This document shows, piece after piece, positions 12,762 through 39,448 of a stretch of DNA of 52,534 nucleotides. The notes beneath the pieces were generated by a model. It was not told the origin of the DNA and made no database searches. It saw only the letters and a list, made by a program, of their open reading frames with translations. Origin of the DNA: Pseudomonadota bacterium (lineage in GTDB: Bacteria > Pseudomonadota > Gammaproteobacteria > Burkholderiales > SG8-39); the NCBI GenBank assembly GCA_021813275.1, contig JAKALD010000001.1, positions 1 to 52,534 of the forward strand, written 5' to 3'. Numbering within the stretch: position 1 is the first letter of the stretch; every line of letters begins with the position of its first letter. Made by a program: the position numbers and the translations under genes.

Positions 12762-13187
12762 ATGAGCGCTACTCAGAAGCACGTCGAGCACGCGCGCGAC
12801 TACCAGAAGAAGATCCCCTTCCTCGCGCACCTCAAGATCGTCACCGAGGCGCTCGGCGAAGGCACGGCGCGCGTGTCGCTGCCGCTCGAGACCCACCTGA
12901 CCAACAGCTTCGGCAGCGCGCACGGCGGGGTCATCATGACGCTGCTCGACGTCGCGCTGTGCACCGCGGCGCGCACCCTGCATCCGGATTCGGTCGGGGT
13001 CGTCACGATCGACCTGAGCGCCTCGTTCATCGGCGCGGGCACGGGAAGGCGGCTGCTCGCCGAGGCGCGCGTGCTGCGCAACGGCCGCTCGACCATCTTC
13101 GTCGAGGGAGAGGCGAGGAACGAGGACGGCGGGCTCGTCGCCAAGGCGATCGGCACGGTGCGCGCGCGCCAGCCGGGCCACGCCTAG
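12762..13187 (+). CDS. PaaI-family (hotdog fold) thioesterase
   Basis: 141 aa after trimming the 742-aa track ORF to MSATQKHV. The motif NSFGSAHGGVIMTLLD is typical of PaaI/YdiI thioesterases. Confidence 0.8.
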   Translation: MSATQKHVEHARDYQKKIPFLAHLKIVTEALGEGTARVSLPLETHLTNSFGSAHGGVIMTLLDVALCTAARTLHPDSVGVVTIDLSASFIGAGTGRRLLAEARVLRNGRSTIFVEGEARNEDGGLVAKAIGTVRARQPGHA

Positions 13188-15328: not shown

Positions 15329-16905
15329 GGTGCCCCGTCCCGCACGAGCTCGAGCTTCAGGTCGCCCTTCGAGATGTAGATGCGGCCCACCTTGGGCCGG
15401 CGCGTCAGCTCCTGCACCAGGTGCACGATCGGATTGCGCGCCGCAAGCGGCAAGCTGGCCGGTACCTGCGCGATCATTTCGTCGACCTGCGGGCCTGCGA
15501 ACATGAATCGCAGCAGCCGCTCGTCGTCGCCGGCGTTCGGGTACTTGCGCCGCAGCTCGGCAACCCCCGGCGGCGGCAGCGAAGGCTCGAGCGCGATGCG
15601 CTTGGAGCCGTTCTCCACGATCCGGTCGAGCACCTGGGGTTCGACGGGCGCGAGCAGCTTTCCGTAGTAGCCGAGCGCGTATTTCTTGACCTCGTCGGGG
15701 ACGATTTCGTAGCGCTGCCCGCGGACCACGTTGAGCACCGCTTGCGTGCCGACCAGCTGGGCGAAGGGCGTGATCATGATCGGCCAGCCCAGCTCGCGCC
15801 GCACTCGCGCGCACTCCTCGAGCAGCTCGTCGAACTTGTGCAGAATGCCGGCGTGCTCGAGCTGCGAGCGGAAATTGCTCAGCATGCCTCCCGGGATTTG
15901 ATGCTCGTAGTGGAACGGGTCGTACTCGAGCGGCGCACCGAGCGGCTTGCCCTCGCGCTCGGCGATCCTCCGGAAATGCTCGCCCACCTCGTCGATCAGG
16001 GCGTCGTCCACGGCGATGCGGTAGCCGCGGTGGCGCAGGGCGCGCGCCATGGACTGCGTCGCCGGCTGCGCGGCGCCGTTGGCGAGCGGCGCGATCGAGC
16101 TGTGGATCTCGTCCACGCCGAGATCCGCGCCTTCCAGGTACACGAGAGGCGCGAGCCCGGTCAGGCAATGGCTGTGCAGCTCGAGCGGCGTGTCGCCGGC
16201 CACCGCGCGCAGCGCCGGAACGAGCGTCCGGATGCGCTCCGGGGTGAGCAGCCCGCCTGCGTCCTTGATCATGATCGCGTCGACCCGGCCACGCTCGATG
16301 AGATCCTGCGCCGTCTTCACGTAGAGCTCGTCGGTGTGCACCGGGCTGAGCGAATAGGCGAGCGCGCCGAAAACGCGCACTCCGAGGCGCTTGGCGACCC
16401 GGATGCTCGCAAGCATGTTGTCGACGTCGTTCAGGCCGTCGAAGGCGCCCACGACGCGAAATCCGTTCGCCACCAGTCGCTCGACCCACAGCTCGATGAT
16501 GTCGTCGGGCACGAGGTCGAAGCTCATGATGTTGCGGCTGCGGATCAGCGCGCGCAACGGCGTCTGCTGGCAGCGCTCGCGCATGAGGCGCACCCGCAGC
16601 CAGGGATCCTCCCTCAGGTAGCGCACGCACACGTCGAACTGGATCGCGCCGGCGAGATCGATCTGCGCGAAGCCGCAGCGATCCATGCGCTCGGCCACCG
16701 GCAGCATGTGCGCCGTGGTCATGCGCGTCGCCCACAGGCACTGGTGCGCGTCGCGCAGCGTGGTATCGATGATCCGGATCTCGCGGCCCTTGCGATCCCG
16801 CTCCTGCACGGGGCGCTCCCGGTGCGCGGGCGCGGCGCGCTTCACGGGGCGAGATCGCGCCGCGGCGTCAGCGCGCGGGGTCGATGAGGACAAGCGGCTG
16901 CCCAT
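15325..16905 (-). CDS. Biotin-dependent carboxyltransferase subunit (oxaloacetate decarboxylase alpha / pyruvate carboxylase B / transcarboxylase 5S type) lacking a biotinyl domain
   Basis: 526 aa. It has an HMGL-like barrel (IIDTTLRDAHQ, ...KDAGGLL, LELHSHCLTGLA) and a PYC_OADA-like middle region. There is no AMKM/EVMK motif at the C-terminus. The start is uncertain: ATG at 16905 overlaps the BCCP gene, and GTG at 16845 is the alternative. Confidence 0.85.
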   Translation of the reverse strand: MGSRLSSSTPRADAAARSRPVKRAAPAHRERPVQERDRKGREIRIIDTTLRDAHQCLWATRMTTAHMLPVAERMDRCGFAQIDLAGAIQFDVCVRYLREDPWLRVRLMRERCQQTPLRALIRSRNIMSFDLVPDDIIELWVERLVANGFRVVGAFDGLNDVDNMLASIRVAKRLGVRVFGALAYSLSPVHTDELYVKTAQDLIERGRVDAIMIKDAGGLLTPERIRTLVPALRAVAGDTPLELHSHCLTGLAPLVYLEGADLGVDEIHSSIAPLANGAAQPATQSMARALRHRGYRIAVDDALIDEVGEHFRRIAEREGKPLGAPLEYDPFHYEHQIPGGMLSNFRSQLEHAGILHKFDELLEECARVRRELGWPIMITPFAQLVGTQAVLNVVRGQRYEIVPDEVKKYALGYYGKLLAPVEPQVLDRIVENGSKRIALEPSLPPPGVAELRRKYPNAGDDERLLRFMFAGPQVDEMIAQVPASLPLAARNPIVHLVQELTRRPKVGRIYISKGDLKLELVRDGAP

Positions 16906-17395
16906 ACTCCACGAGCTCCCCGTCGGCGGCGAGAACGTCGAGCACCGTTCCCTTCGTTCCCGCCTTGACCGAATTGAACAGCTTCATCACCTCGACCAGG
17001 CACACGGGGTCCTCGGGCCCGACCTGGTCGCCGATTTCCACGAAAGGCGGCGCGCCCGGGGAGGCAGCCCGGTAGAAGGTTCCGAGCATCGGCGCGCGCA
17101 CGGCCGCGCAGCCTTCCGGAACGCGCACTTCTGACCGCGCGGCGAGCACCGGCCCGAACTCGGGCGCCTGCGCAGGATCGGCCGGCGCGGGGACTGCCGA
17201 AATGTCGGCGATGCGCGGCTCTGCCGGCACGCTCCATCCGCCCGAGGAGCGCCGCAGGTGGATCTTGAGGTCCGCGAACTCCACGCGCAGCTCGTCGAAC
17301 TGCCACTCATCGACGAGCTTCAGGATCCTAGCGACGTCGTCCTCGGTCAGCGCCACCGCACGTTCCCCCCGCCGCCTTGCTTGAGCGAAACCCAC
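16868..17395 (-). CDS. Biotin carboxyl carrier protein (BCCP)
   Basis: 175 aa. The C-terminal biotinyl domain carries the motif CLVEVMKLFNSV and is preceded by a Pro/Ala-rich linker. The start is uncertain: GTG at 17395 or GTG at 17356. Confidence 0.8.
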   Translation of the reverse strand: MGFAQARRRGERAVALTEDDVARILKLVDEWQFDELRVEFADLKIHLRRSSGGWSVPAEPRIADISAVPAPADPAQAPEFGPVLAARSEVRVPEGCAAVRAPMLGTFYRAASPGAPPFVEIGDQVGPEDPVCLVEVMKLFNSVKAGTKGTVLDVLAADGELVEYGQPLVLIDPAR

Positions 17396-17464: not shown

Positions 17465-18496
17465 TTACTGCCAGTGGATCGCCTTCTCGGCGCGGTCGAG
17501 GTAGCTGTAGTCGATGTACTTGTTCATCCAGCCGTCGATGTCCTTGCCGAAGGAAGCCGGGATCTTCTTCGCGTCGATGACCGACTTCAGGATGATCCGT
17601 GTCGAGGGCATGTCGATCCGCGGGTCGGTCACGATGATCGACTTCATGGCATCCAGCACGATCGGCACTCCCTTGGGATTGTTCATCTTCTTGGCGACGA
17701 TCTCGGCCACCTGTTGCGGCGAGTGCTCCTTGATCCACTTCATGCCGCGCAGCGTCGCTTCCACGAAGCCTTCGACGGCCTTCGGGTGTGCTTTGGCGAA
17801 GGCCGGTGACACGATCACCTCGAGGCTTTCCGCGTTCTTGATCGGCGGAAGCTGGGCGATGTAGTGCAGCGCCGGGTTCTGGTGGATCGCGGTCGCGGCG
17901 GCGGGCTCCCACGAGATGAACGCGGCGATCTCACCCTTTTGCGCCATGACGGCGAAGTCCGATACCTTGGCGAACACCCGCTGGAACTTGATGTGCTGGG
18001 TGTTCTCGACGTAGGTCAGCACCGCATCCTGCACCGTACCCAGGCCGGGGCTGCCGACCTTCTGTCCGTTGAGCTCCTTGTACGAGTGGTACTTCTTGAG
18101 GCCCACCAGCGGGGCGTTGTACTTGGTGACCGACATCAGCATCTTGAAGTCCTGCCCGCGCGCGGCCATCTCCATGAACGGCGCGAGTCCGGCGGCGATC
18201 ATGTCGATCTCGCCGTTGGCGAAATGCAGCAGCCCTTCCGGGCCATTGTTGAAGGTGTGGCGCTCGATCTTGATGCCTGCGTCGGTGTAGTAGCCGAGCG
18301 CGTCGGCGACCCAGATGTTGGCGTAGTCGGCCTCCGAGCCGATCTCGTCACCCAGGCGTACGGTGGTGAGTGTCTTGCCGCCCTGAGCCCACACCGACGG
18401 CGTGACGCTCAGCGCGAGCCCGAATGCAAAGGCGGCCCCGAGCAGGCTGGAGAACAGCCGGCGTCCGCGGCGCGATACACGATCAGCGAATTGCAT
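17465..18496 (-). CDS. ABC transporter substrate-binding protein, NitT/TauT (NMT1/THI5-like) family
   Basis: 343 aa. It has an N-terminal signal peptide (LLGAAFAFGLALSVTPSVWA) and lies next to a matching permease and ATPase. Confidence 0.8.
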   Translation of the reverse strand: MQFADRVSRRGRRLFSSLLGAAFAFGLALSVTPSVWAQGGKTLTTVRLGDEIGSEADYANIWVADALGYYTDAGIKIERHTFNNGPEGLLHFANGEIDMIAAGLAPFMEMAARGQDFKMLMSVTKYNAPLVGLKKYHSYKELNGQKVGSPGLGTVQDAVLTYVENTQHIKFQRVFAKVSDFAVMAQKGEIAAFISWEPAAATAIHQNPALHYIAQLPPIKNAESLEVIVSPAFAKAHPKAVEGFVEATLRGMKWIKEHSPQQVAEIVAKKMNNPKGVPIVLDAMKSIIVTDPRIDMPSTRIILKSVIDAKKIPASFGKDIDGWMNKYIDYSYLDRAEKAIHWQ

Positions 18497-20443: not shown

Positions 20444-20456
20444 GGCAAACGTTTTC
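20444..20456. promoter_or_regulatory. LacI-type operator-like motif GGCAAACGTTTTC
   Basis: It is identical to the 13-mer at 25626-25638 and closely resembles the perfect palindrome GCAAACGTTTGC at 25787-25798. Confidence 0.4.
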
Positions 20457-20534
20457 GCTGCGACCCGCGGTCCCGCCCGCGACGCAAGGAAGCGGTATGC
20501 TAACCGTCGCCGTCGCCAAGGCCGACATCCCGAC

Positions 20535-21386
20535 ATGAGCCCCGCGCCACCGGAACGCCGGCCCGAGAAGTTCTTCGCCAAGTACCGGCCGAGCGTCGCC
20601 CACGGCGGCCCGAAATATCGGATCCTGCGCGACGCCCTCATCGCGGCGATCGAGGACGGCTACTGGGAAGTCGGCGACCGACTTCCGACCGAGCTGGAGC
20701 TGACGGCGATGACGCCTTACAGCCTCGGAACCGTGCAGCGCGCGATCCAGGCCCTGGTCGCCGAAGGTTTCGTCACCCGCAAGCCGCGCAGCGGCAGTTT
20801 CGTTGCTCCCGGGCACCGGCGCATCGGCGGCCCCTGGCTGTTCCGCTTCCTGGCCGAGGACGGGAGCGGTTTTCTCCCGATGTTCACCAAGGTGGTCGCC
20901 CGTCGGCAGGTGAAGGAGCGCGGCCAGTGGTTCGACTGGCTGACGCAGGGCGAGCCGCGCAAGCGGCTATTGCGCATCGACCGGCATATCCGGGTCGACA
21001 GCGAGCTGATTGCGTTCAACCGCGTCTATCTGGATCCCCAGCGCTATCCCGTGATTGCCTCCGCCCCGACCCGGGAGCTGGACGGCGCCAACTTCGTGCA
21101 CATGATCGAGCACGCCTACCGCCTGCCGGTAAACCACATCGCGCATACCGTGCGTTGCGCGATGCTGCCCGAGGTGGCGCGGCGCGCAATCGGCTTGAAG
21201 AAGCGCACGCTCGGCACGATTGTCGAGATCGCCGCGAGCGCCGGGCGGAGCCGCCCGGTGTCCTACCAACAAATCTTCGTGCCGCCGACCGCCTATCGTC
21301 TCTACATTTCGGAGACGAGCGCGGACTGGCACACCACGCGCTCGGGCGAGCCGCTGCCCGAGGCGCGCGGGGCCGCCTCCGGTTAG
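20535..21386 (+). CDS. GntR family transcriptional regulator (HutC/UTRA-type)
   Basis: 283 aa after trimming to MSPAPPER. The winged helix-turn-helix reads LPTELELTAMTPYSLGTVQRAIQALVAEGFVTRKPRSGSFV and is followed by a UTRA-like effector domain. Confidence 0.8.
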   Translation: MSPAPPERRPEKFFAKYRPSVAHGGPKYRILRDALIAAIEDGYWEVGDRLPTELELTAMTPYSLGTVQRAIQALVAEGFVTRKPRSGSFVAPGHRRIGGPWLFRFLAEDGSGFLPMFTKVVARRQVKERGQWFDWLTQGEPRKRLLRIDRHIRVDSELIAFNRVYLDPQRYPVIASAPTRELDGANFVHMIEHAYRLPVNHIAHTVRCAMLPEVARRAIGLKKRTLGTIVEIAASAGRSRPVSYQQIFVPPTAYRLYISETSADWHTTRSGEPLPEARGAASG

Positions 21387-22327
21387 GCGCAGGAGCCGCC
21401 CGCCAGCGTTTCGGATAGGAAACGCGCCGCCAGCGCATGCGCTGCGCGCGCGCCCCGCACCATTCCGCCCATATTGAAGAAGCCGTGGATCATGCCGGGG
21501 AAGACCTCGAGCGAGACATCGTTGCCGGCACCTGCCAGGGCCCCGGCATAGGCTCGGGCATCGTCGGCCAGCGGATCGCACTCCGCGGCGATGATCAGGC
21601 AGCGCGGCTGCCCGGCGAGGGTGCGCGCCGCAACCGGTGCGAATCGCGGGTCGTCGTCCCGGTCGCGCCCCTGCGTGTAGTTCCGATAGAACCACTCGAG
21701 GTCGTTGAGGGTCAAGAAATGGCCCTCTGCAAACTGTTGCTTCGAGGCGCTCGGCCTTCGCCCGATGGCGCTCGGGTAGACGAGGATCTGCGCCGCGGGA
21801 AGCGGCAGATCAGCCTCACGCGCGCGCAGCGACACGACGGCCGCGAGGGTCGCACCGGCGCTGTCGCCCGCGATCGCCAGATTCGCCGGCCGCTCCGCGC
21901 CCTCGCCCAAGCGCGCCAGCGCCCAATCGTACGCGCGCACGGCGTCGTCGACCGCAGCTGGAAACGGATGCTCCGGCGCGAGCCGGTAGCCCGCCGAGAA
22001 CACTCTGCAACCGCAGCGCGCCGCGAACATGCGGCAGACAATGTCGCTCGTCTCGATGCTGCCCACGCAGTAGCCGCCGCCGTGCAGCCACAGCAATCCG
22101 CCGGCGCCCGGAGCACGCCTCTCCGGTGCGTACTCGCGCACGACCAGCCCGGCTCCGAGCGGCTCATCGCTCGCCGCGACCGACGGCTCGGGCGCGAGGT
22201 CGAGCAGGCGCAAGCCCTTGTCGTAGGCCTTGCGAGCCGCGTCGATCGGCTGTGTCCATAGCGGCGGCGTGTTGTTGCGCCGCATGCCCTCCAGGATGCG
22301 CGCGACGTCCGGGTCGAGCCCTTGCAT
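21383..22327 (-). CDS. Alpha/beta hydrolase, hormone-sensitive-lipase (Abhydrolase_3) family esterase
   Basis: The oxyanion motif is LHGGGY and the nucleophile elbow is GDSAGA. The acid and His residues fall in CDPLADD and IHGFF. Start chosen at MQGLDPDV (22327); the track ORF begins at 22363, overlapping the upstream gene. Confidence 0.8.
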   Translation of the reverse strand: MQGLDPDVARILEGMRRNNTPPLWTQPIDAARKAYDKGLRLLDLAPEPSVAASDEPLGAGLVVREYAPERRAPGAGGLLWLHGGGYCVGSIETSDIVCRMFAARCGCRVFSAGYRLAPEHPFPAAVDDAVRAYDWALARLGEGAERPANLAIAGDSAGATLAAVVSLRAREADLPLPAAQILVYPSAIGRRPSASKQQFAEGHFLTLNDLEWFYRNYTQGRDRDDDPRFAPVAARTLAGQPRCLIIAAECDPLADDARAYAGALAGAGNDVSLEVFPGMIHGFFNMGGMVRGARAAHALAARFLSETLAGGSCA

Positions 22328-22335
22328 GGCCGGAA

Positions 22336-22578
22336 TCAAGGCGCGGCCGGCTCCACGCGGCACACGACGCCACCGACCTCCACGATGTCCTCGACGTTCG
22401 CGACAATCTCGACCAGCTTGCCGTCGAACGGCGCCGGGATCTCGGTGGCGACCTTCTCGGTCTCGATGTCGTAGAGCGGCTCGCCTTGCTTGAACGGATC
22501 TCCTGGCCCCTTGTGCCAGACCTTGATCGTGGCCTCTTCCATGTTCATTCCGATCCTGCCGAGCTTCAGCTCAACCAT
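22336..22578 (-). CDS. Free-standing lipoyl-attachment domain protein
   Basis: 80 aa, consisting of a single biotin/lipoyl-attachment fold. The lipoyl-lysine context is DIETEKVATEI, resembling the canonical ETDKA motif. The protein ends in a linker-like EPAAP. Its start overlaps the E1 beta stop by 8 nt. Confidence 0.8.
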   Translation of the reverse strand: MVELKLGRIGMNMEEATIKVWHKGPGDPFKQGEPLYDIETEKVATEIPAPFDGKLVEIVANVEDIVEVGGVVCRVEPAAP

Positions 22579-23563
22579 GGCGGCGCGCTCCTTCGGAGCC
22601 GGCGATCTCGAGCACCGCGCCGACTATCCTCTGGTGACCGGGTATCACGGCCTTCTCCAGCACCGGCGAATACGGGATCGCGACGTCCTCGACCGCGACG
22701 CGCCTGATCGGCGCCTTGAGCAGGTGAAAGCCACGCTCGGCCACGGTCGCGGCGATCTCGCTCGCGACACTGCACGACTTGCGCGCCTCGTCGACCACGA
22801 CCAGGCGGCCGGTGCGGCGCAGCGAGCCGAGGATGGCGTCGTAGTCCATGGGCACCACCGTGCGCGGATCGATCAGGCTCGCGGAGATACCCTGCTTCGC
22901 CAGCTCGTCGCAGGCCTTGAGCGCGGGCTTCACCATGCTGCCGAGCGCCACCACGGTGACGTCGTCACCGGCGCGCTTCTCCTCCGCCTTGCCGAGCGGA
23001 ATCACGTAGTCGCCGTCGGGCACCTCGCCGGCCTCGCCGCCGCGGCCGGCGGCCTGCAGAAGGAACACGGGGTTGTCGTCGCGAAGCGCGGCCTTGACCA
23101 GGCCCTTGGCATCGCCCGGCGCAGCCGGCATGACGATCTTGACGCCACCGAGGTTCATCAGCAGCGGATGCATGCTGTCGGAGTGCTGGGCCGCGACCGA
23201 GCGCCCGCCGCCGATCATCGCCATGTACAGGATCGGCAGCTTCACCTGCCCGCCGAGCATGTAGCGCAGCTTCGCCGCCTGGTTCGCGATCGCGTCGAAG
23301 CCGGTGTAGATGAAGTTGCCGTAGAACAGATGGCAGATCACGCGCAGGCCGGTGGCCGCCGCGCCCACCGCCATGCCGCTCATGACCGACTCCGAGATCG
23401 GCGTGTTGCGCACCCGCGCCGCCCCGAAGCGCTCGATCAGCCCGCGCGTGTCGCCCACCGGGCTGATGTGCACGTCCTCGCCCATCACGATGATCGACGG
23501 GTCGCGCTCCATTTCCTCGGCGATCGCCTCGTTGATCGCCTGCACCATGCGTTTCTTCGCCAT
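22571..23563 (-). CDS. 2-oxoacid/acetoin dehydrogenase E1 component, beta subunit
   Basis: 330 aa after trimming to MAKKRMVQAINEAI. It shows a transketolase-like pyrimidine-binding and C-terminal domain pattern (VRNTPISE..., PVFLL...). Confidence 0.9.
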   Translation of the reverse strand: MAKKRMVQAINEAIAEEMERDPSIIVMGEDVHISPVGDTRGLIERFGAARVRNTPISESVMSGMAVGAAATGLRVICHLFYGNFIYTGFDAIANQAAKLRYMLGGQVKLPILYMAMIGGGRSVAAQHSDSMHPLLMNLGGVKIVMPAAPGDAKGLVKAALRDDNPVFLLQAAGRGGEAGEVPDGDYVIPLGKAEEKRAGDDVTVVALGSMVKPALKACDELAKQGISASLIDPRTVVPMDYDAILGSLRRTGRLVVVDEARKSCSVASEIAATVAERGFHLLKAPIRRVAVEDVAIPYSPVLEKAVIPGHQRIVGAVLEIAGSEGARRHG

Positions 23564-23571
23564 CGGCTGCC

Positions 23572-24546
23572 TCACGCAAACATGTGTTGGAACGCCGCTT
23601 CCGGCTGCGGCCACGGCGCCGCGGCCGCGTACTCGAACGCCGCCTGCACCGCGGCGCGCTCCTTGTCCTCGGCGGCCGCGATCGCATCTGGCGCGATCCT
23701 CGCGCCGCGCAACGCCGCGAGCGCGACGCGCAGCGGCTCGCGCTCGCGGCGCCGCTCGACTTCCTCGTCGCTGCGGTAGCTCTTCGCGAGGAACGACTTC
23801 TCCGCCTCGACGTGACCGCGCAGGCGGTAGGTGCGCATCTCGAGGAGTGTCGCGCCACCGCCGCCGCGCGCGCGCTCGATCGCCTCGCCCGCCGCGGACC
23901 AGACTTCCCGCACGTCGTTGCCGTCGACCGGCTCGCCCGGTATGCCGAAAGGCGTGGCGCGCTTCCAGATCTCGCCCGCGGTCACCGTCGCTGTGGGCGA
24001 GAACTCCGAGAAGCCGTTGTTCTCGCACACCAGCACGAGCGGCAGCTTCCACAGCGCGGCGACGTTGAGCGATTCGAGCAGCACGCCCTGGTTCGCCGCG
24101 CCGTCGCCGAAGAAAACCACTGCCACGTTGCGCGTGCCGCGCGTCTGCGCCGACAGGGCCGCGCCGGTGGCGAGCGCGATGCCGCCGCCGACGATGCCGT
24201 TCGCGCCGAGGATGCCCTTCGAGACGTCGGCGACGTGCATCGACCCGCCCTTGCCCCCGCAGACCCCGGACGCGCGGCCGTAGACCTCGGCGACGAGCTT
24301 GCGGATTTCGTCGCTCTTGGCGAGGAAATGGCCGTGGCCGCGGTGCGTGCTGCAGATCCAGTCCTGGTCCGACAGGTGCGCGCACACCCCGACCGCCACG
24401 GCCTCCTGGCCGATGTACAGATGCACCGGGCCGGGCAGCTCGCCCGCCGCCTGCACCTGCGCCAGCCGCTCTTCGACCGTCCGGATGCGGAACATCCGGC
24501 CGTACAGCTCGAGCAGCTTCCCGCTTGTCAGTTCCTGAACGCTCAT
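23572..24546 (-). CDS. 2-oxoacid/acetoin dehydrogenase E1 component, alpha subunit (TPP-binding)
   Basis: 324 aa. The TPP motif is FFGDGAANQG...CENNGF, and THRGHGH is also present. Confidence 0.9.
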   Translation of the reverse strand: MSVQELTSGKLLELYGRMFRIRTVEERLAQVQAAGELPGPVHLYIGQEAVAVGVCAHLSDQDWICSTHRGHGHFLAKSDEIRKLVAEVYGRASGVCGGKGGSMHVADVSKGILGANGIVGGGIALATGAALSAQTRGTRNVAVVFFGDGAANQGVLLESLNVAALWKLPLVLVCENNGFSEFSPTATVTAGEIWKRATPFGIPGEPVDGNDVREVWSAAGEAIERARGGGGATLLEMRTYRLRGHVEAEKSFLAKSYRSDEEVERRREREPLRVALAALRGARIAPDAIAAAEDKERAAVQAAFEYAAAAPWPQPEAAFQHMFA

Positions 24547-24598: not shown

Positions 24599-25630
24599 TC
24601 ACGCGGCTGGAGGCGGGGCGGTCGAGCTGCGCACGACCAGCTCGGCTTCGAGCCTCACGTGGTCGGGCGTCGGGGTTCCCGCGAGGCGCGCGACGAGGAA
24701 GTCCGCGGCGCACAGGCCGATCTCGGCCGCGGGCACTCGCATGGTGGTCAGCGATGGAACGATGTGTGAAGAAAGCTCGACGTCGTCGAAGCCGGCGATC
24801 GACAGCGACTGCGGTACGCTTACCCCCTGCGCGATGCACTCGTAGAGCGCGCCGTGCGCCAGGATGTCGTTGCCGCACACCACCGCGGTCGGCGGCTCAC
24901 GCTGAGCGAGCAGCATGCGCAGCGCGCTGCGCCCGTCCGCGATGCTGTACGGCCGCTCGACGATCCGCGCCGCCGGCAGCTTGATGCCGCGCGCCGCGAG
25001 CGCATCGACTAGGCCTGCCTTGCGCTGCGCCGCGCGGTCGTTACCGCGCGTGATGCCGGCGATCATGGCGAAGCGCCGGTGGCCGAGGTCGTACAGATAG
25101 TTCGCCAGGCGCATCATCGCCAGGCGATTGTCGAAACCGATGCACGGCGCCTGGCCCGCGCCGTCGTAGATCCAGGTGTGCACGAACGGGATCGCCCGCG
25201 CCTCGATCAGGCGCGCGACTTCGGAGCCGTGCTCGGCGCCCACCAGGACGATGCCGTCGATGCCGCGCTCGACGAGCGACTGCAGCTCCGCGGACTCGCG
25301 CTCGGCCTGGTAGTCCGTGCTCGCGAGCAGCAGCGTGTAGCCGTGCGTGTTGAGCCGGCTCTGCAGCGCGTGCAGGGCCTTCGCGAACATCGCGTTGTCG
25401 ATCGTCGGCACGATTGCGCCGATGGTGCCGAACTGCTTCGAGACGAGCGAGCGCGCCGCCCGATCGGGCACGTACTTCAGCGCCTCGGCCGTCGCGCGGA
25501 TGCGCGCGACGGTCTCGGCCTTGACGCGGCCCGGGTTAGTCAGCGCGCGGGAGACCGTGGCGATGGACACGCCCGCCTTGCGCGCGACGTCCTTGATGGT
25601 GGCGGATTTTCCGCCGGCCGCTCTAGGCAA
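24599..25630 (-). CDS. LacI family transcriptional regulator
   Basis: 343 aa. The N-terminal helix-turn-helix reads ATIKDVARKAGVSIATVSRAL and is followed by a periplasmic-binding-protein-like effector domain. The apparent start is a TTG, because no in-frame ATG lies near the N-terminus. Confidence 0.85.
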   Translation of the reverse strand: MPRAAGGKSATIKDVARKAGVSIATVSRALTNPGRVKAETVARIRATAEALKYVPDRAARSLVSKQFGTIGAIVPTIDNAMFAKALHALQSRLNTHGYTLLLASTDYQAERESAELQSLVERGIDGIVLVGAEHGSEVARLIEARAIPFVHTWIYDGAGQAPCIGFDNRLAMMRLANYLYDLGHRRFAMIAGITRGNDRAAQRKAGLVDALAARGIKLPAARIVERPYSIADGRSALRMLLAQREPPTAVVCGNDILAHGALYECIAQGVSVPQSLSIAGFDDVELSSHIVPSLTTMRVPAAEIGLCAADFLVARLAGTPTPDHVRLEAELVVRSSTAPPPAA

Positions 25631-25638
25631 ACGTTTTC
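25626..25638. promoter_or_regulatory. LacI-type operator-like motif GGCAAACGTTTTC overlapping the LacI start codon
   Basis: It is an 11/12 match to the palindrome GCAAACGTTTGC and is identical to 20444-20456. The position fits autoregulation. Confidence 0.4.
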
Positions 25639-25751
25639 CACCTTCTCAATCGAAACGTCGCGATTCTATCAAGGACCAGGCCGCGCGGCGGAGCGTCGAT
25701 TCGACACGTCCGGCGCCCCCTCCCCGTAACGACCGTTGTTTCGCGTTCTGC

Positions 25752-25781: not shown

Positions 25782-25786
25782 TCCGT

Positions 25787-25798
25787 GCAAACGTTTGC
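25787..25798. promoter_or_regulatory. Perfect 12-bp palindrome GCAAACGTTTGC, candidate LacI-family operator
   Basis: It fits the LacI/GalR operator pattern with a central CG. It sits between the candidate -10 element and the first gene of the plus-strand operon, divergent from the LacI gene. Confidence 0.55.
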
Positions 25799-25875
25799 CA
25801 TTCGCGCCCGCCTGGAGAAAGAGCGGCCGAAGGCGCGGTCTTCTTGATTCGATTGCACCGGAGGTCGGAGCGCAC

Positions 25876-26712
25876 ATGAGCCACCCCTCCAAAGCGGGGC
25901 GCGCGCGCTCGAGCGGCCGAGCGGGCCCCACCGCGTGCGCGGGTACCGACCTGAGCGTGGTGATCAGCGGGGGCGCAAGCGGCATCGGCGCGGCCACCGC
26001 ACGCCGCATCGTCGCCGCCGGCGGCCACGTGGGCATTCTGGACGTCAACGGCGCCCTCGCGAGGCAGGTCGCGAAGGGGCTGGGCGAGCGCGCCGTCGCG
26101 GTAACAGCCGACGTCCTGGACGAAGGCCAGGTCCGGCGCGCGCACCGCCGCTTCGCAACCGCGCTCCCCGACATTCGCGGCCTGGTCAATTGCGCCGGCA
26201 TGCCGCAGGTGCCGCGGACGATCGAGGAATACGCGGTCGAGGACTGGTCCGCGGTCCTCGACTCGCATCTGCGCACGACGTACGTCGCGTGCCGCGAGTT
26301 CGGAGGCGCGATGGCGCGCCGCGGGGCCGGCGCCATCGTTAATCTCGCTTCGGTGCTCGCGTTTCGGCCCGGGCCGGTGCTCGCGTACGGTCCGGCCAAG
26401 GCCGCGGTCGTGAGTCTCACCGAAAGCCTGGCGGTGCAGTGGGCGCACCGCGGCGTGCGCGTCAACGCGGTAGCGCCGGGATGGACTGACACCCCGTTCC
26501 TGCGGCCCAAGGAGCGCAAGGGCGAGCGCGACCTGACGCCCATCATTCGCGCGACTCCGCTCGGGCGGCTGCTCAAGCCGCAGGAGATCGCCGAGGTGAT
26601 CGTGTTCCTGCTCTCAGCCGCGGCGAGCGGCGTGACAGGAGCGACCGTCGCCTGCGACGGCGGCGTGATGGCCGGCAGCGGCTGGATGCCCTATGGCGGG
26701 ATCCCCGCGTAG
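25876..26712 (+). CDS. SDR family oxidoreductase
   Basis: Start trimmed to MSHPSKAG. The cofactor motif is ISGGASGIGAA and the catalytic motif is YGPAKAAV. Confidence 0.8.
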   Translation: MSHPSKAGRARSSGRAGPTACAGTDLSVVISGGASGIGAATARRIVAAGGHVGILDVNGALARQVAKGLGERAVAVTADVLDEGQVRRAHRRFATALPDIRGLVNCAGMPQVPRTIEEYAVEDWSAVLDSHLRTTYVACREFGGAMARRGAGAIVNLASVLAFRPGPVLAYGPAKAAVVSLTESLAVQWAHRGVRVNAVAPGWTDTPFLRPKERKGERDLTPIIRATPLGRLLKPQEIAEVIVFLLSAAASGVTGATVACDGGVMAGSGWMPYGGIPA

Positions 26713-27499
26713 CCCGGGCCGCGGCGCGCCGCGCGCGCGGGTGCAGCGCTCCGCGGTCGCCGCAGGCCTCGTCGTGGCGCTGCTCGCCGCGTGGTACCTC
26801 ACGACCGGGCCCTTGGAGCTGGTCAACTCGCTGCAATTCCCTTCGCCAGACGACGCGTACGAAGCGCTCAGGCAGCTGACGAGCCCGGGCTACGCCGGCG
26901 CGACGCTCGCGCGCCACATCGCCGACAGCCTCGCGCTGGTGGGACTGGGATTCGTCGCGGCGACGCTCACCGGAATTCCGCTCGGCATCCTGATGGGCTC
27001 GAGCCGGCTCGCGGAGGCCTACATCAACCCGGTCTTCCAGCTGATCCGGCCGATCGCGCCGATCGCCTGGATCCCGCTCACGATCCTGTGGTTCGGCCTC
27101 GGCACGGCGGCAAAGGTGTTCGTGGTCTGGCTGGCCGCGTTCTCGCCGGCGGCGATCAACGCCTTCACGGGAGTGCGCAACGTCGATCCGGTGCTGATCG
27201 CGGCCGCACGGGTGCACGGCGCCTCGGCGCGCCAGGTACTCTCGCAGGTCGTGATACCGGCGTCCCTGCCGACCATCTTCACCGGCCTGCGGGTATCCCT
27301 CCAGGCCTGCTGGATGGTGCTGGTGGCCGCGGAGCTGGTCGGGTCGTTCGCCGGGCTCGGCCACATCATGATCATTGCGACCCGCGATCTCAATTCCGGA
27401 ATGATCTTCGTGGCGATGGCGTGCGTGGCGCTGCTCGGCGTGGCGTTGAGCGTCGCGCTCGCGTGGGTCGAGCGCTGGGCGGTTCCATGGCGACGCTAG
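26693..27499 (+). CDS. ABC transporter permease 1, NitT/TauT family
   Basis: 268 aa. Hydrophobic helices are present, with PIAWIPLTILWFGLG and the EAA loop AARVHGASARQVLSQVVIPASLP. The start is uncertain: ATG at 26693 or GTG at 26741. Confidence 0.8.
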   Translation: MAGSPRSPGRGAPRARVQRSAVAAGLVVALLAAWYLTTGPLELVNSLQFPSPDDAYEALRQLTSPGYAGATLARHIADSLALVGLGFVAATLTGIPLGILMGSSRLAEAYINPVFQLIRPIAPIAWIPLTILWFGLGTAAKVFVVWLAAFSPAAINAFTGVRNVDPVLIAAARVHGASARQVLSQVVIPASLPTIFTGLRVSLQACWMVLVAAELVGSFAGLGHIMIIATRDLNSGMIFVAMACVALLGVALSVALAWVERWAVPWRR

Positions 27500-28308
27500 G
27501 CGCCCCGGCCCGCGCGCACGCGGCACCGCAGGCGCTTTCCGACTCGGCCGCGTGGCGGACGATCGCCTCGACGCTGGGCGTCGCGACGTTCATCGGGGTC
27601 TGGGTCGCCGTGACCTCCCTCGGGCTGGTGCCGCCGACGTTCCTGCCCAGCCCGACCGCGGTGCTGGCAAGAATCGTGGACCTCACGCACGAGCCGTACT
27701 CCGGTTCGTTGCTGCAGGCACATCTGCTCGCCAGCCTGCGCAAATTCGGGTTGAGCTACCTGCTTGCGGTCGTGATCGGCGTTCCGCTCGGCCTGCTCAT
27801 GGGGCGCTTCCGCTTCGTCGATTGGCTGGTCTCGCCTGTGTTCGAGGGACTGCGCTTCATTCCGCCGATTGCGTGGGTGCCCTTCTCCATCCTCTGGTTC
27901 GGCACCGGATTCCTCGCTCCGACCCTCGTGATCTTTGCCGGGGCCTTCTCACCCTGCGTGTTAAACGCCTACCGCGGCGCGAAGCTCATCGACCGGCAGC
28001 TCATCGAAGCCGCGCAGACCCTCGGCGCGCGGGGCTGGACCATGCTCGGCCAGGTCATGCTGCCGGCGGCGCTTCCGCACATCGTGGCCGGGCTACGCGT
28101 AAGCGCCGGCTTCGGCTGGCAGTCGCTCATCGGGGCCGAGCTGATCGTGGGCTCGACCGGCTTGGGCTACATGATCGTTCAGGGTGAAAGCAATCTGGCG
28201 CCGGCCGTCGTGATCGCCGGAATGGCGACCATCGGCGTCGTCGGGGCGCTGATCGACTACACCATGCGTGCCCTGGAGGACTGGATCCGGCGCGATTGGG
28301 GTCGCTAG
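27487..28308 (+). CDS. ABC transporter permease 2, NitT/TauT family
   Basis: 273 aa after trimming to MATLGAPA. It contains PIAWVPFSILWFGTG and the EAA loop AAQTLGARGWTMLGQVMLPAALP. It overlaps permease 1 by 13 nt. Confidence 0.8.
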   Translation: MATLGAPARAHAAPQALSDSAAWRTIASTLGVATFIGVWVAVTSLGLVPPTFLPSPTAVLARIVDLTHEPYSGSLLQAHLLASLRKFGLSYLLAVVIGVPLGLLMGRFRFVDWLVSPVFEGLRFIPPIAWVPFSILWFGTGFLAPTLVIFAGAFSPCVLNAYRGAKLIDRQLIEAAQTLGARGWTMLGQVMLPAALPHIVAGLRVSAGFGWQSLIGAELIVGSTGLGYMIVQGESNLAPAVVIAGMATIGVVGALIDYTMRALEDWIRRDWGR

Positions 28309-28361
28309 AGCATGTCCATCGGAGCGGGAGGCGCTCCATGTCACCACGAGGAGGAGAGGAA

Positions 28362-29435
28362 ATGAGAAGCCGAGCATCGAAGACGCTAGTGGGTGTGCTG
28401 CTGGCCGCACTGGCCGGCGCGGGCGCGAGCGCTGCCGCGCGCGCGGCCGACCCGAGTCCATTCCCGGTCCGGGTGAGCCAGCAGCCCCAGCGCTGGGCGC
28501 TGGAGTGGTACATCGCGACGCAAAAGGGCTGGTGGCAGCAGCTCGGCCTGCAGCCGACAATGGTGACGTTCGCCTCCGGAGCGCCGCAGGTCGCCGCCGG
28601 CGCGTCGGGTTCGTGGGACGTCGGCGGCGCGGGTGACCTGCCGGCCGTGCTCGGCGGCAGCCGCTACCGCCTGCAGACCATCGCCATCGCGGACGAGGAG
28701 GCCGCGATCATCACGATCATGGCGACCAAGGACAAGGCCGAGCAGTACGCGAAGAACCCGGCCCTCATCAAGGGCAAGACCATCCCGGTCACGACCAATT
28801 CGACCGGCCAATGGGGCGCGGCGGTTTGCCTGGAGAAGAAATTCGGCCTCAAGCCGGGCGACTACCAGTTCGTCAACCTTTCGCCGCCGGAGATCAATGC
28901 CGCGGTGAGCAGCGGCCGGTACGACATTTCCGAGGTGTGGGCGCCGAACACCTACATTCTCGACTCGACGATCGGGGCCAAGGTGATTTGCGACGGCAAG
29001 GAGATGGGCCTGCCGATCACGAGCAACCTGTTTGCCACGCCGGCCTTCGCCAAGAAACATCCCGAGATCGTCGCCAAGTTCCTTGCGGTGTATCTGCGCG
29101 CGGTCGCGTGGGAGCGCGCCCACCCCAAGGAGACCGTCGAGATGCTGGGTGCGTTCTTCAACTCGGTCGGGGTCAATATTCCCGAAAAGTACCTGCCCGT
29201 GGAGCTGCACAACCGGCCTGCGTTCACGCTGCAGGAGCAGCTGAAGATCTTCCGCGGCAGCGCGAGCGGCAAGTCGCTGGCGGCCGACTGGTCGAATCAG
29301 GTCGCGCAGTTCATGACCTCGGTCGGCGTGATCAACAAGGTTCCGGACGCGAAGGGCTACGTGACCGACAAGTATCTGCTGATGATCGAGCACGATCCGA
29401 AGCTGAAGGCCTTCGCCGAGAACGCCTCGGACTAA
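28362..29435 (+). CDS. ABC transporter substrate-binding protein, NitT/TauT (NMT1-like) family
   Basis: Start trimmed to MRSRASKT, with a GAGGAGAGGAA ribosome-binding site upstream. The signal peptide is LLAALAGAGASAAARA. Confidence 0.8.
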   Translation: MRSRASKTLVGVLLAALAGAGASAAARAADPSPFPVRVSQQPQRWALEWYIATQKGWWQQLGLQPTMVTFASGAPQVAAGASGSWDVGGAGDLPAVLGGSRYRLQTIAIADEEAAIITIMATKDKAEQYAKNPALIKGKTIPVTTNSTGQWGAAVCLEKKFGLKPGDYQFVNLSPPEINAAVSSGRYDISEVWAPNTYILDSTIGAKVICDGKEMGLPITSNLFATPAFAKKHPEIVAKFLAVYLRAVAWERAHPKETVEMLGAFFNSVGVNIPEKYLPVELHNRPAFTLQEQLKIFRGSASGKSLAADWSNQVAQFMTSVGVINKVPDAKGYVTDKYLLMIEHDPKLKAFAENASD

Positions 29436-29630
29436 GCGCCACCGCCAGCTCGGTCGCGGCTAGTCGCCGGCGCGCTCGCGTCGGCGGCCGCCACGGCCGG
29501 TCGGCGCGTTTCATCGTGCGTGGGCCGACGCGCCCGCCCGGGCGTCATAATCGGGGTCACCGCGCACGCGTGCCGCAAACGGATACGCGCTCCAGCATCC
29601 GGCGCGGCGTCGGGCAAGGGAACAACAATT

Positions 29631-30428
29631 GTGAGCTCCATCCAATTCGAGCGAGTCGTACGCACGTTCACGCGCAACGGGCAAGACGTGCGAGCCGTGG
29701 ACGAGGTCAGCTTCGTGGTCGCGGAGAGGGAATTCGTCGCAATCGTGGGGCCGTCCGGCTGCGGCAAGACCACGCTGCTGCGCATGGCGGCGGGACTGGA
29801 CTTTCCGACCGGCGGTGCCGTACGAGTCGGAGACCGGCAGATCGACGGGCCCGGGTCGGACCGCGCGGTGGTCTTTCAGCAGTTCGCACTGTTCCCCTGG
29901 AAGACCGTGGCGGACAACATCGCTTTTGGGCTCAAGTGCCGGGGGACTGCGGAGAGCGCCAGACAGGAGATCGTCTCGCACTATGTCGCGCTGATGGGGC
30001 TGCAGGGCTACGAGCGCGCCTTCCCGCACCAGCTCTCGGGCGGCATGCAGCAACGCGTGGCGATCGCGCGCAGCTACGCGCTCGAGCCGAGTGTGCTTCT
30101 GATGGACGAACCCTTCGGCGCCCTCGACGCGCAGACCCGCGTCGGGATGCAGGAGGAGCTCGTGCGCCTCTCGCGGATCAATCCGCGCACGGTGCTATTC
30201 ATCACCCACTCCGTCGAGGAAGCCGTCTATCTGGCCGATCGCGTCGTCGTCATGACGCGGCGGCCGGGGCGTATTCGTGAGATCGTGGAGGTCACGCCGG
30301 TCCGGCGGCGCGAGGGCTGGGACGCCTGCGAGCGCATCGAGGACGTGATGGACCAGGAGTCGTTCGTACACCTGCGCACGCACATCTGGAAGCTGCTGCG
30401 CGAGCAGCACGGCGCGTCCGCGCACTGA
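29631..30428 (+). CDS. ABC transporter ATP-binding protein, NitT/TauT family
   Basis: 265 aa from a GTG start (VSSIQFERV). Walker A GPSGCGKTT, signature LSGGMQQRVAIARS and Walker B LLMDEPF are present. Confidence 0.85.
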   Translation: MSSIQFERVVRTFTRNGQDVRAVDEVSFVVAEREFVAIVGPSGCGKTTLLRMAAGLDFPTGGAVRVGDRQIDGPGSDRAVVFQQFALFPWKTVADNIAFGLKCRGTAESARQEIVSHYVALMGLQGYERAFPHQLSGGMQQRVAIARSYALEPSVLLMDEPFGALDAQTRVGMQEELVRLSRINPRTVLFITHSVEEAVYLADRVVVMTRRPGRIREIVEVTPVRRREGWDACERIEDVMDQESFVHLRTHIWKLLREQHGASAH

Positions 30429-33123: not shown

Positions 33124-35499
<2,376 letters not shown>

Positions 35500-38413: not shown

Positions 38414-39448
38414 GTGAGCAAGGGCGCGCCGAAGCTGAGCGACGTGGCGCGCATGGCCGGCGTCTCGCCGGCGACCGCGTCGCGCGCCCTTTCGACGCCC
38501 GCGCAGGTGCGCCCGGAGACCCGCGCCAAAGTCGACGACGCGGCGCGCCTGCTCGGCTACGTCCCCCACGGCGCCGCGCGCGCGCTGGCCTCGCAGCGCA
38601 GCCGGACGATCGGCGCGGTCATCCCCACGCTGGACAACGCGATCTTCGCCAACTCGGTAAACGCGCTGCAGCGCTCGCTGGCCGAGTCGGGCTACACGCT
38701 GCTGCTGGGCTCGCACGGCTACGACCCCGCAGTCGAGCTCGAGGTCACGCGCGCGCTCATCGAGCGCGGAGTCGACGGGATCGTCTTCGTCGGCACCGAC
38801 CACGATCCGCAGCTCTACCGCATGCTCGCCACGTTCCGCATCCCCTACGTTCTCACGTGGTCGCTGGATCCGAGCGGGCACCATCCCTGCATCGGCTTCA
38901 ACAACCGCGAGGCCGCGATGCAGGTGACCCGCTTTCTGCTCGACCTCGGGCACCGGAACTTCGCCGTGATCTCGGGGCTGACCGCGCACAACGATCGCGC
39001 GCGCGATCGCGTCGCGGGAGTGCGCGACGCGTTGCGCGCGAGGGGCCTGGACCTCACCCCGCAGGCGGTCATCGAACGGCCCTATTCCTTCGCCAGCGGT
39101 CAGGAGGGCATGCGCGAGCTGCTGAAGCGCGCGCTGCGCCCTAGCGCCGTGGTGTGCATCAACGATGTGCTCGCCGTCGGCGCAATCATCGAATGCCGGG
39201 CCGAAGGGCTCGACATCCCGCGCGACGTCTCGATCACGGGCTTCGACGACATGGAGATCGCGGCGCAGCTCGCGCCGGGGCTCACGACGATGCGGCTGCC
39301 TACGGTCGACCTGGGGCGGTCGGCGGCGGCGTATCTGCTCGACCGGCTCGCGGGCCGCGAGGTCGCGCCCAGCACCGAGCTGCCCGTACAGTTGGTCGTG
39401 CGCGGCAGCACCGCGCCGCCGCGAAGCCGGTCCGCAGGACGGAAGTGA
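38414..39448 (+). CDS. LacI family transcriptional regulator
   Basis: 344 aa with a GTG start. The helix-turn-helix reads PKLSDVARMAGVSPATASRAL and is followed by a sugar-binding-like effector domain. Confidence 0.85.
   Translation: MSKGAPKLSDVARMAGVSPATASRALSTPAQVRPETRAKVDDAARLLGYVPHGAARALASQRSRTIGAVIPTLDNAIFANSVNALQRSLAESGYTLLLGSHGYDPAVELEVTRALIERGVDGIVFVGTDHDPQLYRMLATFRIPYVLTWSLDPSGHHPCIGFNNREAAMQVTRFLLDLGHRNFAVISGLTAHNDRARDRVAGVRDALRARGLDLTPQAVIERPYSFASGQEGMRELLKRALRPSAVVCINDVLAVGAIIECRAEGLDIPRDVSITGFDDMEIAAQLAPGLTTMRLPTVDLGRSAAAYLLDRLAGREVAPSTELPVQLVVRGSTAPPRSRSAGRK

Follow-up and report, generated by a model that had tools for sequence, protein, structure and literature searches.

How is a lipoyl carrier unloaded when the genes around it encode no E2 core? 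What defines the 2-oxoacid and acetoin dehydrogenases of the textbooks is a multimeric E2 core, which carries the lipoyl arms and organizes E1 and E3. The question is raised by a minus-strand gene cassette in a 52,534-nt stretch of DNA (contig JAKALD010000001.1, GCA_021813275.1; Burkholderiales, SG8-39), which was analyzed at its full length and is called the window here. In transcriptional order, the cassette encodes a LacI-type regulator, the alpha and beta subunits of a thiamine pyrophosphate (TPP)-dependent E1 enzyme, an 80-aa lipoyl protein (Lip), and an esterase (Est) of family IV, the hormone-sensitive lipase (HSL) family:

24599..25630, minus strand: LacI-family repressor, first gene of the operon (PF00356 and Peripla_BP_1/3)
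23572..24546, minus strand: E1 alpha, TPP-binding, 324 aa (PF00676, 221 bits)
22571..23563, minus strand: E1 beta, 330 aa (PF02779, Transket_pyr, and PF02780, Transketolase_C)
22336..22578, minus strand: Lip, free-standing lipoyl carrier protein, 80 aa, pI 4.5 (PF00364, 53.6 bits)
21383..22327, minus strand: Est, HSL-type serine esterase, 314 aa, cytoplasmic (PF07859, 224.8 bits)

A preliminary description of this DNA had proposed the gene order and domain calls, and Pfam matches supported them for all five genes. The coordinates also reproduce the 8-nt overlap that it reported, in which Lip starts before E1 beta has ended. Gaps of 8 nt separate E1 alpha from E1 beta and Lip from Est, with the Lip and Est open reading frames (ORFs) lying in different frames. 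No promoter-like or terminator-like site was found inside the stretch from E1 alpha to Est, and a scan of the GC-rich operon region for sigma-70 promoters gave no matches. With its 8-nt gaps and overlap and its lack of internal promoter-like or terminator-like sites, the cassette is a tight operon, an arrangement that favors a role for Est in unloading Lip.

Both E1 subunits show the features of a heterotetrameric TPP-dependent E1: the E1_dh domain and TPP motif in alpha (GDG...NN, residues 147 to 177), and the Transket_pyr and Transketolase_C domains in beta together with His127. The latter residue, in an HSDS motif, aligns with the active-site His of the pyruvate dehydrogenase (PDH) E1 beta subunit of G. 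stearothermophilus; this beta-subunit His is used in reductive acylation. Judged by the TPP motif and the aligned His127, the enzyme looks catalytically competent. The best solved relative of E1 alpha was human PDH E1 alpha (171 bits, versus 107 for branched-chain 2-oxoacid dehydrogenase [BCKDH]), and that of E1 beta was the G. stearothermophilus PDH subunit (255 bits). Because neither subunit reaches its NCBIfam cut-off for PDH E1 equivalogs (E1 alpha versus TIGR03182 [PDH_E1_alph_y], 301 bits, cut-off 394; E1 beta versus NF006667, 295 bits, cut-off 321), homology places the enzyme in the PDH/acetoin branch of alpha2beta2 E1 enzymes as a relative of PDH E1, not as PDH itself. A specific kinship with AcoAB, for which the preliminary description had suggested a phylogeny, did not emerge: in a neighbor-joining tree of E1 beta, AcoC-bearing loci (38% identical) lie far off, and the closest solved relatives of both subunits are of the PDH type.

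The putative lipoyl-lysine of Lip, K42, lies in an ETEK motif, and the protein ends in EPAAP. The best NCBIfam match was to the N-terminal lipoyl domain of AcoC-type E2 proteins (NF011457 positions 5 to 79, 69.6 bits); likewise, among annotated plasmids, the best matches were AcoC proteins, leaving aside free-standing Sphingobium lipoyl proteins. In the AlphaFold2 (AF2) model (pLDDT, 93.7), K42 sits between strands 34 to 39 and 44 to 48, and the top PDB folds were the E2 lipoyl domains 1ghj and 2l5t. K42 was invariant across 26 aligned homologs. The match to PF01597 (H-protein) was marginal, at 23.3 bits over residues 18 to 64 only (47 residues). A biotinyl domain was rejected, given ETEK instead of MKM and lipoyl proteins as both the best hidden Markov model (HMM) matches and the best folds. 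By profile and model, then, Lip is classed as a bona fide E2-type lipoyl domain, presumably lipoylated at K42. No match to PF02817 (E3-binding, PSBD) was found in Lip, which ends 3 to 5 residues past the lipoyl domain. Its small size is shared by its relatives: all 50 homolog clusters (45 to 98% identical) comprised proteins of 78 to 106 aa with only a biotin/lipoyl-type (PF00364-type) domain. In addition, 13 independent contigs, from NCBI metagenome-assembled genomes (MAGs) and from assemblies of ENA and Logan, encode the identical Lip protein, and its neighbors are the same on each.

Searches for the missing partners were negative, in agreement with the earlier statement that the window contains no chloramphenicol acetyltransferase (CAT)-like E2 and no dihydrolipoamide dehydrogenase. 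The E2 catalytic motif DHRxxDG and the E3 redox-disulfide motif were absent from all six frames of the 52.5-kb window, and the larger window ORFs scanned gave no Pfam match to PF00198 or to Pyr_redox (pyridine-nucleotide-disulfide oxidoreductase). Nor was a canonical E2/E3 pair found just outside the operon in relatives, an arrangement that would have pointed to Est as unrelated cargo: in the 6 to 7 kb around ~95 loci encoding a free Lip, tblastn gave no match to an E2 catalytic domain, to the AcoC-type hydrolase, or to a GorA/Lpd-like flavoprotein. The single exception was the probe's own gorA source gene on Sphingobium plasmids. As positive controls, the E2, AcoC-type hydrolase, and GorA/Lpd probes matched 52, 3, and 14 other loci, respectively. 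Local absence of E3 is not unusual: the description of the P. putida aco cluster, acoXABC, likewise includes no gene for E3 (PMC10107126).

If no E2 is linked to Lip, what kind of enzyme is Est? Counted from the ATG that gives MQGLDPDV, the protein is 314 aa long and carries a catalytic triad (S156/D251/H281), the oxyanion motif HGGG (82 to 85), and GDSAG (154 to 158); the motifs first described for Lip and Est are thus all present. Together with the catalytic Asp and His and an N-terminal cap, they make Est a family IV/HSL (PF07859) protein. Its sequence matched Est8 (PDB 4ypv) with an E value of 1.6e-60, and its AF2 model (pLDDT, 94) superposed on both LAE6 (5jd4) and Est8 with a TM-score of 0.91. 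Against NF058653 (the LipP1 HSL equivalog), it scored 257.7 bits, under the cut-off of 350. BLASTP detected no similarity between Est and the hydrolase domain of AcoC (E = 0.46), and Est gave no match to NF011457. This agrees with the proposal that the hydrolase, with its own full N-terminal cap, belongs to an alpha/beta family other than that of AcoC (PF07859 versus Abhydrolase_1/6).

Several residues are specific to the Est clade: Y86 and C87 directly after HGGG, C250 directly before Asp251, and the arginines R16, R17, R40, R191, and R221. By analogy with other HSL esterases, and not by mapping on the model, the arginines may be located in cap regions. These residues are candidates for recognition of the carrier or of an anionic substrate. 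That the Tyr and Cys residues among them flank the catalytic machinery, and that the carrier is acidic, speaks for an action of Est on Lip. In a library clustered at 50% identity, the cassette esterases come down to essentially one cluster. Because the next-nearest esterase, a 41% identical protein of Pokkaliibacter, sits in an unrelated, siderophore-like context, the cassette esterases are regarded, by sequence, as a lineage of their own.

The association of Lip with Est was followed in group A, defined by an E1 beta identity of 77% or more to the window protein; a locus was counted if it offered at least 288 nt of downstream sequence. The order E1 alpha, E1 beta, Lip, Est was conserved in all 22 loci, with Est always directly after Lip: Lip stops 1 to 5 codons past its domain, and a separate Est starts 9 to 99 nt later. 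Together with the uniformly short homologs, this bears out the free-standing nature of Lip. Est identity within the group spans 42 to 81%. The flanks vary, comprising an SsuA-like ATP-binding cassette (ABC) transporter or a tripartite ATP-independent periplasmic (TRAP) transporter, with or without LacI and with or without a vicinal oxygen chelate (VOC) protein or a split transketolase; a LacI gene upstream of E1 alpha is conserved in L001 to L007, L091, L093, L107, L109, and L112 to L115 (L numbers are our locus labels). The recurrence of the four-gene arrangement is far beyond chance. Est was found in none of the ~70 free-Lip loci whose E1 beta is 70% identical or less (45 to 70%).

The E1-Lip unit itself also occurs outside group A. 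An E1 beta scan of one genome per species yielded 80 loci, and the 14 closest (E1 beta 52 to 93% identical) all encode a free Lip of 79 to 80 aa. At E1 beta identities of 49% or less, where a lipoyl domain was detectable, it lay in a longer ORF (in the scanned examples, a canonical E2 or a lipoyl plus E3_binding protein). With a Lip profile, a scan of metagenomes confirmed 424 relatives. Lip is free-standing in the 80 loci kept and comes directly after E1 beta in nearly all that include upstream sequence. Loci with E1 alpha-beta and a free lipoyl protein of 78 to 82 aa are L107 to L186 (metagenome), L019 to L024, L096 to L099, and L102 to L105. On these comparisons, E1 alpha-beta plus a free lipoyl carrier, with neither E2 nor E3 linked, is a large conserved family, widespread in soil metagenomes and apparently uncharacterized, and a carrier-style, E2-less reading of these loci is well supported. 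The survey for E1 with a short lipoyl protein and an esterase that had been proposed at the outset covered ~95 free-Lip loci, with the esterase in the 22 group A loci; in full-text literature searches, no description was found of such a three-part system or of the wider free-carrier family.

In the E1 beta tree, group A is sister to group B, which encodes a CocE/NonD-type alpha/beta hydrolase unrelated to Est and an AMP-forming CoA ligase directly upstream of E1 alpha. The group B hydrolase copies are orthologous (47% identical between a Burkholderiales MAG and Sphingobium plasmids of hexachlorocyclohexane [HCH] degraders), and their closest family is the lactonase family NF047920 (122 bits, under the cut-off). 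The neighbors of Lip in esterase-less loci include pyrroloquinoline quinone (PQQ) dehydrogenase plus cytochrome c, short-chain dehydrogenase/reductase (SDR), SnoaL, RPE65, VOC/glyoxalase, and CMD/AhpD-like proteins, as well as metallo-beta-lactamase (MBL)-fold, major facilitator superfamily (MFS), aminotransferase, glutathione S-transferase (GST), and GcvT-like proteins. A universal unloading enzyme beside Lip was rejected for these loci: the clustered neighbor ORFs were heterogeneous, and none was consistent. The MBL-fold neighbor resembles RNase Z, not glyoxalase II.

How does the cassette compare with known systems? Among its closest analogs is AcoC (NF011457/PRK14875) acting with AcoA and AcoB. 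Both combine a heteromeric TPP-dependent E1 with a lipoyl domain and then an alpha/beta-hydrolase serine enzyme, without a CAT-like core. In both, SDR dehydrogenases lie in the cluster and E3 is not local (PMC10107126), and Lip matches the N-terminal lipoyl domain of AcoC. Annotated AcoC proteins on Rhizobium and Roseateles plasmids consist of two lipoyl domains, E3_binding (PF02817), and Abhydrolase_6/1, and follow an E1 alpha-beta pair, consistent with the statement in the preliminary description that AcoC fuses a lipoyl domain to an alpha/beta hydrolase. In the cassette, by contrast, Lip is a separate 80-aa protein without PSBD, and the hydrolase is a separate Abhydrolase_3/HSL gene instead of an Abhydrolase_1/6 domain; the fused hydrolase is lacking and the full-length NF011457 score of at least 307 bits is not attained. 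Because both a PSBD and a fused Abhydrolase_1/6 were looked for and are missing, the cassette falls outside the AcoC family.

With the canonical PDH, BCKDH, and 2-oxoglutarate dehydrogenase (OGDH) complexes, the cassette shares the E1 alpha and beta folds, TPP motif, and active-site His, as well as the E2-type fold of Lip. Unlike them, it has no PF00198 core, no PSBD, and no linked E3, and therefore no multimeric scaffold is expected. A haloarchaeal split E2 on a Halobaculum magnesiiphilum plasmid (L097, 4934 to 8078) resembles it in encoding the lipoyl domain as a gene of its own (103 aa) after E1 alpha and E1 beta; there, however, the next gene encodes a 259-aa PF00198 protein, whereas in the cassette it encodes the HSL esterase. 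GcvH and LbpA are likewise small stand-alone lipoylated proteins that shuttle between enzymes, but Lip is an 80-aa E2-type domain instead of an H-protein fold of ~125 aa, and its partner is E1 alpha-beta in place of P-protein or sHdr. Est, for its part, is a member of the family IV/HSL esterases (Est8, 4ypv; LAE6, 5jd4; EST2, 1evq; TM-score of ~0.9), whose known members stand alone with no lipoyl link; the cassette clade differs in having its own conserved residues adjoining the catalytic Asp and the oxyanion hole. ABHD11, an alpha/beta-hydrolase serine enzyme, cleaves an S-acyl-dihydrolipoyl thioester on a lipoyl domain (PMC12643935), the reaction that is proposed for Est. It nonetheless belongs to another alpha/beta subfamily, and it serves the repair of a complex-bound E2, not the main unloading of a free carrier.

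Given these comparisons, our preferred reading, to which we assign a probability of roughly 40%, is that this LacI-repressed catabolic operon encodes a self-contained module for oxidative C-C cleavage or decarboxylation, a 2-oxoacid/acetoin type of dehydrogenase without an E2 core, in which Est unloads Lip. A substrate, probably an anionic polyol, keto acid, or sulfonate, would enter through an SsuA-like ABC importer and be converted by neighboring dehydrogenases to a keto compound. The TPP-dependent E1 alpha2beta2 would attack this compound, form a hydroxyalkyl-TPP intermediate, and reductively transfer the acyl fragment to the lipoyl-K42 of free Lip; we infer these steps from homology and translational coupling. 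Ser156 of Est would then take the acyl group off S-acyl-dihydrolipoyl-Lip and release the free acid or pass it to CoA or another acceptor, the job presumed for the fused alpha/beta-hydrolase domain of AcoC. Finally, a dihydrolipoamide dehydrogenase, presumably encoded elsewhere, would re-oxidize Lip. The Est step is suggested by the invariant Lip-Est linkage, the lack of an E2, and precedent: in vitro, ABHD11 hydrolyzes glutaryl-lipoyl thioesters in preference to CoA esters (PMC12643935), and the title of a reference cited by PMC10107126 reports esterase activity for the AcoC of P. putida. The hydrolase of yet another alpha/beta family in group B also speaks for this reading. One may speculate that hydrolytic release is sensible if the acyl CoA ester would be unusable, as with glycolyl or sulfoacetyl groups.

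In a fuller form, which we put forward tentatively, the module would be a scaffold-free three-protein system. E1 would load the diffusible Lip, and the HSL-type Est would be its dedicated thioesterase or acyltransferase, which would make it, following AcoC and the group B hydrolase, the third alpha/beta hydrolase to be recruited independently where a CAT-like core would otherwise stand, within a large family of E2-less E1-Lip modules in soil bacteria. Est is plausible as a stand-in for E2. The carrier-protein-style variant envisaged in the preliminary description accordingly stands in part: the free carrier and the absence of a linked E2 hold across ~95 loci, but the substitution of an esterase for E2 is not established, since ~70 relatives are esterase-less.

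Several observations weigh against unloading by Est. Lip offers no PSBD to recruit E3. Hydrolytic release wastes the thioester bond. By HMM, sequence, and fold, Est is otherwise an ordinary HSL carboxylesterase, unlike the hydrolase domain of AcoC in sequence, and it evolves more quickly than E1 and Lip do, a tendency of enzymes peripheral to a pathway. No Rosetta-stone fusion of Lip with Abhydrolase_3 was present among the top 120 of 5,566 esterase homologs or among the top 150 in a phmmer search of 1.84 billion representatives. Finally, the ~70 relatives have neither an Abhydrolase_3 gene nor a consistent substitute, which suggests that the module can be discharged by some Est-independent route; Est is perhaps a pathway-specific enzyme instead.

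The main alternative builds on the same points and is only somewhat less probable than our preferred reading: E1 and Lip form the functional unit, a housekeeping E2 core and E3 unload and re-oxidize Lip in trans, and Est is a pathway esterase or lactonase that prepares or processes the imported substrate, for instance by removing an acyl group or opening a lactone, either before or after SDR oxidation. With most E1-Lip loci esterase-less, Est-independent discharge is parsimonious. The typical family IV character of Est, its faster divergence, and the absence of fusions suit a pathway enzyme, as do neighboring dehydrogenases and transporters typical of sugar-acid, polyol, and sulfonate catabolism and the lactonase family nearest to the group B hydrolase. 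To our knowledge, no physiological route is established in which housekeeping E2 cores act on a free lipoyl domain foreign to them, which counts against this alternative. So does the position of Est, always immediately after Lip while other neighbors change. Moreover, the P. putida aco cluster keeps acoC though it lacks an E3 gene (PMC10107126), whereas no E2 is linked in the ~95 loci here.

We consider it unlikely that Est is instead a proofreading or repair thioesterase that strips dead-end or wrong acyl adducts from Lip while another enzyme performs the productive transfer. The model for such a role is ABHD11, which removes glutaryl adducts from the lipoyl arm of the OGDH complex E2 and is specific for lipoyl over CoA thioesters (PMC12643935), and the strict linkage of Est to Lip would fit it. 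Yet Est is an Abhydrolase_3 protein outside the ABHD11-type family, no productive acyltransferase lies nearby, and a need for repair in only one subclade would be unexplained. Quite improbable, too, is a role of Lip solely as a two-electron acceptor for E1, with the acyl-TPP or acyl-lipoyl intermediate hydrolyzed at or by E1 and Est unrelated to the carrier. E1-Lip does occur alone beside partners as diverse as PQQ dehydrogenase with cytochrome c, MFS, aminotransferase, and GST proteins, but the beta-subunit His for reductive acylation is conserved. We know of no precedent for such a mechanism among alpha2beta2 E1 enzymes, which also counts against it. Lastly, the possibility raised at the outset that a single indel near the Lip/Est junction split an ordinary AcoC-type E2 into two ORFs can be dismissed: although the lipoyl-then-hydrolase order mimics AcoC and the ORFs lie 8 nt apart in different frames, the Lip ORF recurs unchanged on 13 independent contigs, all 50 homolog clusters are short, separate genes with spacers of 9 to 99 nt are kept in 22/22 loci, and Est has its own full cap and a Pfam family other than that of the AcoC hydrolase.

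Features upstream of the cassette, and one downstream of it, bear on regulation and on what the module might consume:

25786..25799, no strand assigned: candidate LacI-type operator, the palindrome TGCAAACGTTTGCC, where the divergent promoters of lacI and the SDR/ABC operon meet, with 1 mismatch to TGCAAACGTTTGCA
25626..25639, no strand assigned: second, weaker operator-like site GGCAAACGTTTTCC, overlapping the lacI start
20444..20457, no strand assigned: third, weaker operator-like site GGCAAACGTTTTCG, between a GntR gene and a second SsuA-like ABC transporter operon
25876..26712, plus strand: SDR dehydrogenase, first gene of the divergent transporter operon (PF13561/PF00106; no NCBIfam equivalog reached)
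26693..30428, plus strand: ABC importer with two permeases, substrate-binding protein (SBP; 28362 to 29435), and ATPase (29631 to 30428), from the Pfam annotation of the identical contig L001
30444..31322, plus strand: beta-hydroxyacid dehydrogenase nearest sulfolactaldehyde 3-reductase (YihU) (NF012005, 293.6 bits, cut-off 348; tartronate semialdehyde reductase, 206)

The LacI protein is closest to NF052440, the P. aeruginosa GntR-type gluconate regulator (254 bits, under the cut-off of 400). Across the window, four matches to the operator pattern were found versus 0.78 expected by chance. The palindromes, with the core GCAAACGTTT, suggest one regulon spanning the E1/Lip/Est, SDR/ABC, and GntR/ABC operons, the last of which would belong by virtue of the third site. 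A second LacI regulator is encoded at 38414 to 39448. The same SDR and ABC arrangement occurs in L091, L093, and L107, and the divergent SDR probably makes the keto substrate. The importer SBP is SsuA/TauA-like but scored 123.6 bits against TIGR01728 (SsuA_fam), under the cut-off of 163.5. The YihU-like gene is followed on the opposite strand by a Zn-dependent alcohol dehydrogenase and a gluconate-5-dehydrogenase-like SDR.

Three SsuA/TauA-like SBPs (28362 to 29435, 17465 to 18496, and 34437 to 35486) lie within 20 kb, together with the two LacI regulators and the YihU-like reductase. They hint at catabolism of an organosulfonate or a related anion; no desulfonation gene was seen. Some cassettes elsewhere adjoin TRAP transporters, a split transketolase, or an HpsN-like histidinol-dehydrogenase homolog. 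These contexts suggest an anionic polyhydroxy substrate whose oxidation gives an alpha-hydroxyketone or 2-oxo acid for E1 to cleave; a keto-sugar acid or a C3 sulfonate would be among the candidates. Neither a sulfonate nor a keto-sugar-acid pathway was adopted as a conclusion, these being hints. In part of group A (L091, 11474 to 14963, and L109 to L111), a second LacI gene, a split transketolase (N and C halves), and a beta-hydroxyacid dehydrogenase come right after the cassette (~1 and ~2 kb downstream of Lip), an arrangement that suggests a ketose-type substrate. Farther along the window, the minus strand from 13184 to 17395 encodes a biotin carboxyl carrier protein, a 5S-type carboxyltransferase (pyruvate carboxylase subunit B/OadA-like), and an NDP-forming acyl-CoA synthetase, after the second SsuA-like ABC transporter. 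No biotin carboxylase lies near these genes, and a divergent hotdog thioesterase is found at 12762 to 13187.

Related loci showed further gene contexts. The group B cassette consists of the CocE/NonD-like hydrolase, TetR, the AMP-forming CoA ligase, E1 alpha, E1 beta, and a 79-aa lipoyl protein, and is found in L098 (4040 to 10217), L099, and L096 (Sphingobium plasmids pMI2, pSRL1, and pTK4) and in L019/L020. On the HCH-degrader plasmids, it adjoins linX, and IS6100 has cut it short in pTK4; 5 kb downstream of it, the Sphingobium plasmids encode a gorA-like disulfide reductase. In the Burkholderiales MAG, an enoyl-CoA hydratase and an acyl-CoA dehydrogenase join this set.

In peat and tropical soil metagenomes (L119 to L142) and in Acidobacteriaceae (L021 to L024), E1-Lip occurs with an RPE65-type dioxygenase, a SnoaL-like protein, MarR, and PQQ dehydrogenase plus cytochrome c, a set that resembles lignin-dimer (stilbene/beta-1) catabolism; conserved proteins of 137 and 446 aa without a Pfam match follow Lip in these loci. 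A different organization was seen in L034 (7956 to 8966), L043 (7971 to 9314), and ~40 other alphaproteobacterial loci, where the protein after E1 beta comprises one or two lipoyl domains, E3_binding, and a conserved tail of ~180 aa that no Pfam or NCBIfam catalytic model matches, and a separate gene for an E2 catalytic domain lies 2 to 3 kb downstream. The AcoC-type E2 and E1 of the Rhizobium and Roseateles plasmids (L100, 3948 to 11024, and L101) lie in clusters with a sugar ABC transporter, an FGGY kinase, and two SDRs. A small gene of the carboxymuconolactone-decarboxylase (CMD) family follows there, and in L102/L103 a CMD gene comes after Lip-SBP. One member of this family, AhpD, is a dihydrolipoyl-dependent redox protein.

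A free-carrier family without a linked E2 core would show lipoyl chemistry operating in carrier-protein mode, as with acyl carrier protein (ACP) or GcvH. If Est does unload Lip, it would be a bacterial, main-pathway counterpart of ABHD11 and a non-orthologous replacement of E2. Compact three-part systems of this kind may also find use in biocatalytic C-C cleavage. The modules lie in catabolic clusters of soil bacteria that are abundant yet poorly represented in culture (Casimicrobiaceae/Usitatibacter and Acidobacteriaceae) and on the plasmids of Sphingobium HCH degraders, where they probably mark undescribed cleavage routes for keto-sugar acids, sulfonates, or lignin-derived ketones.

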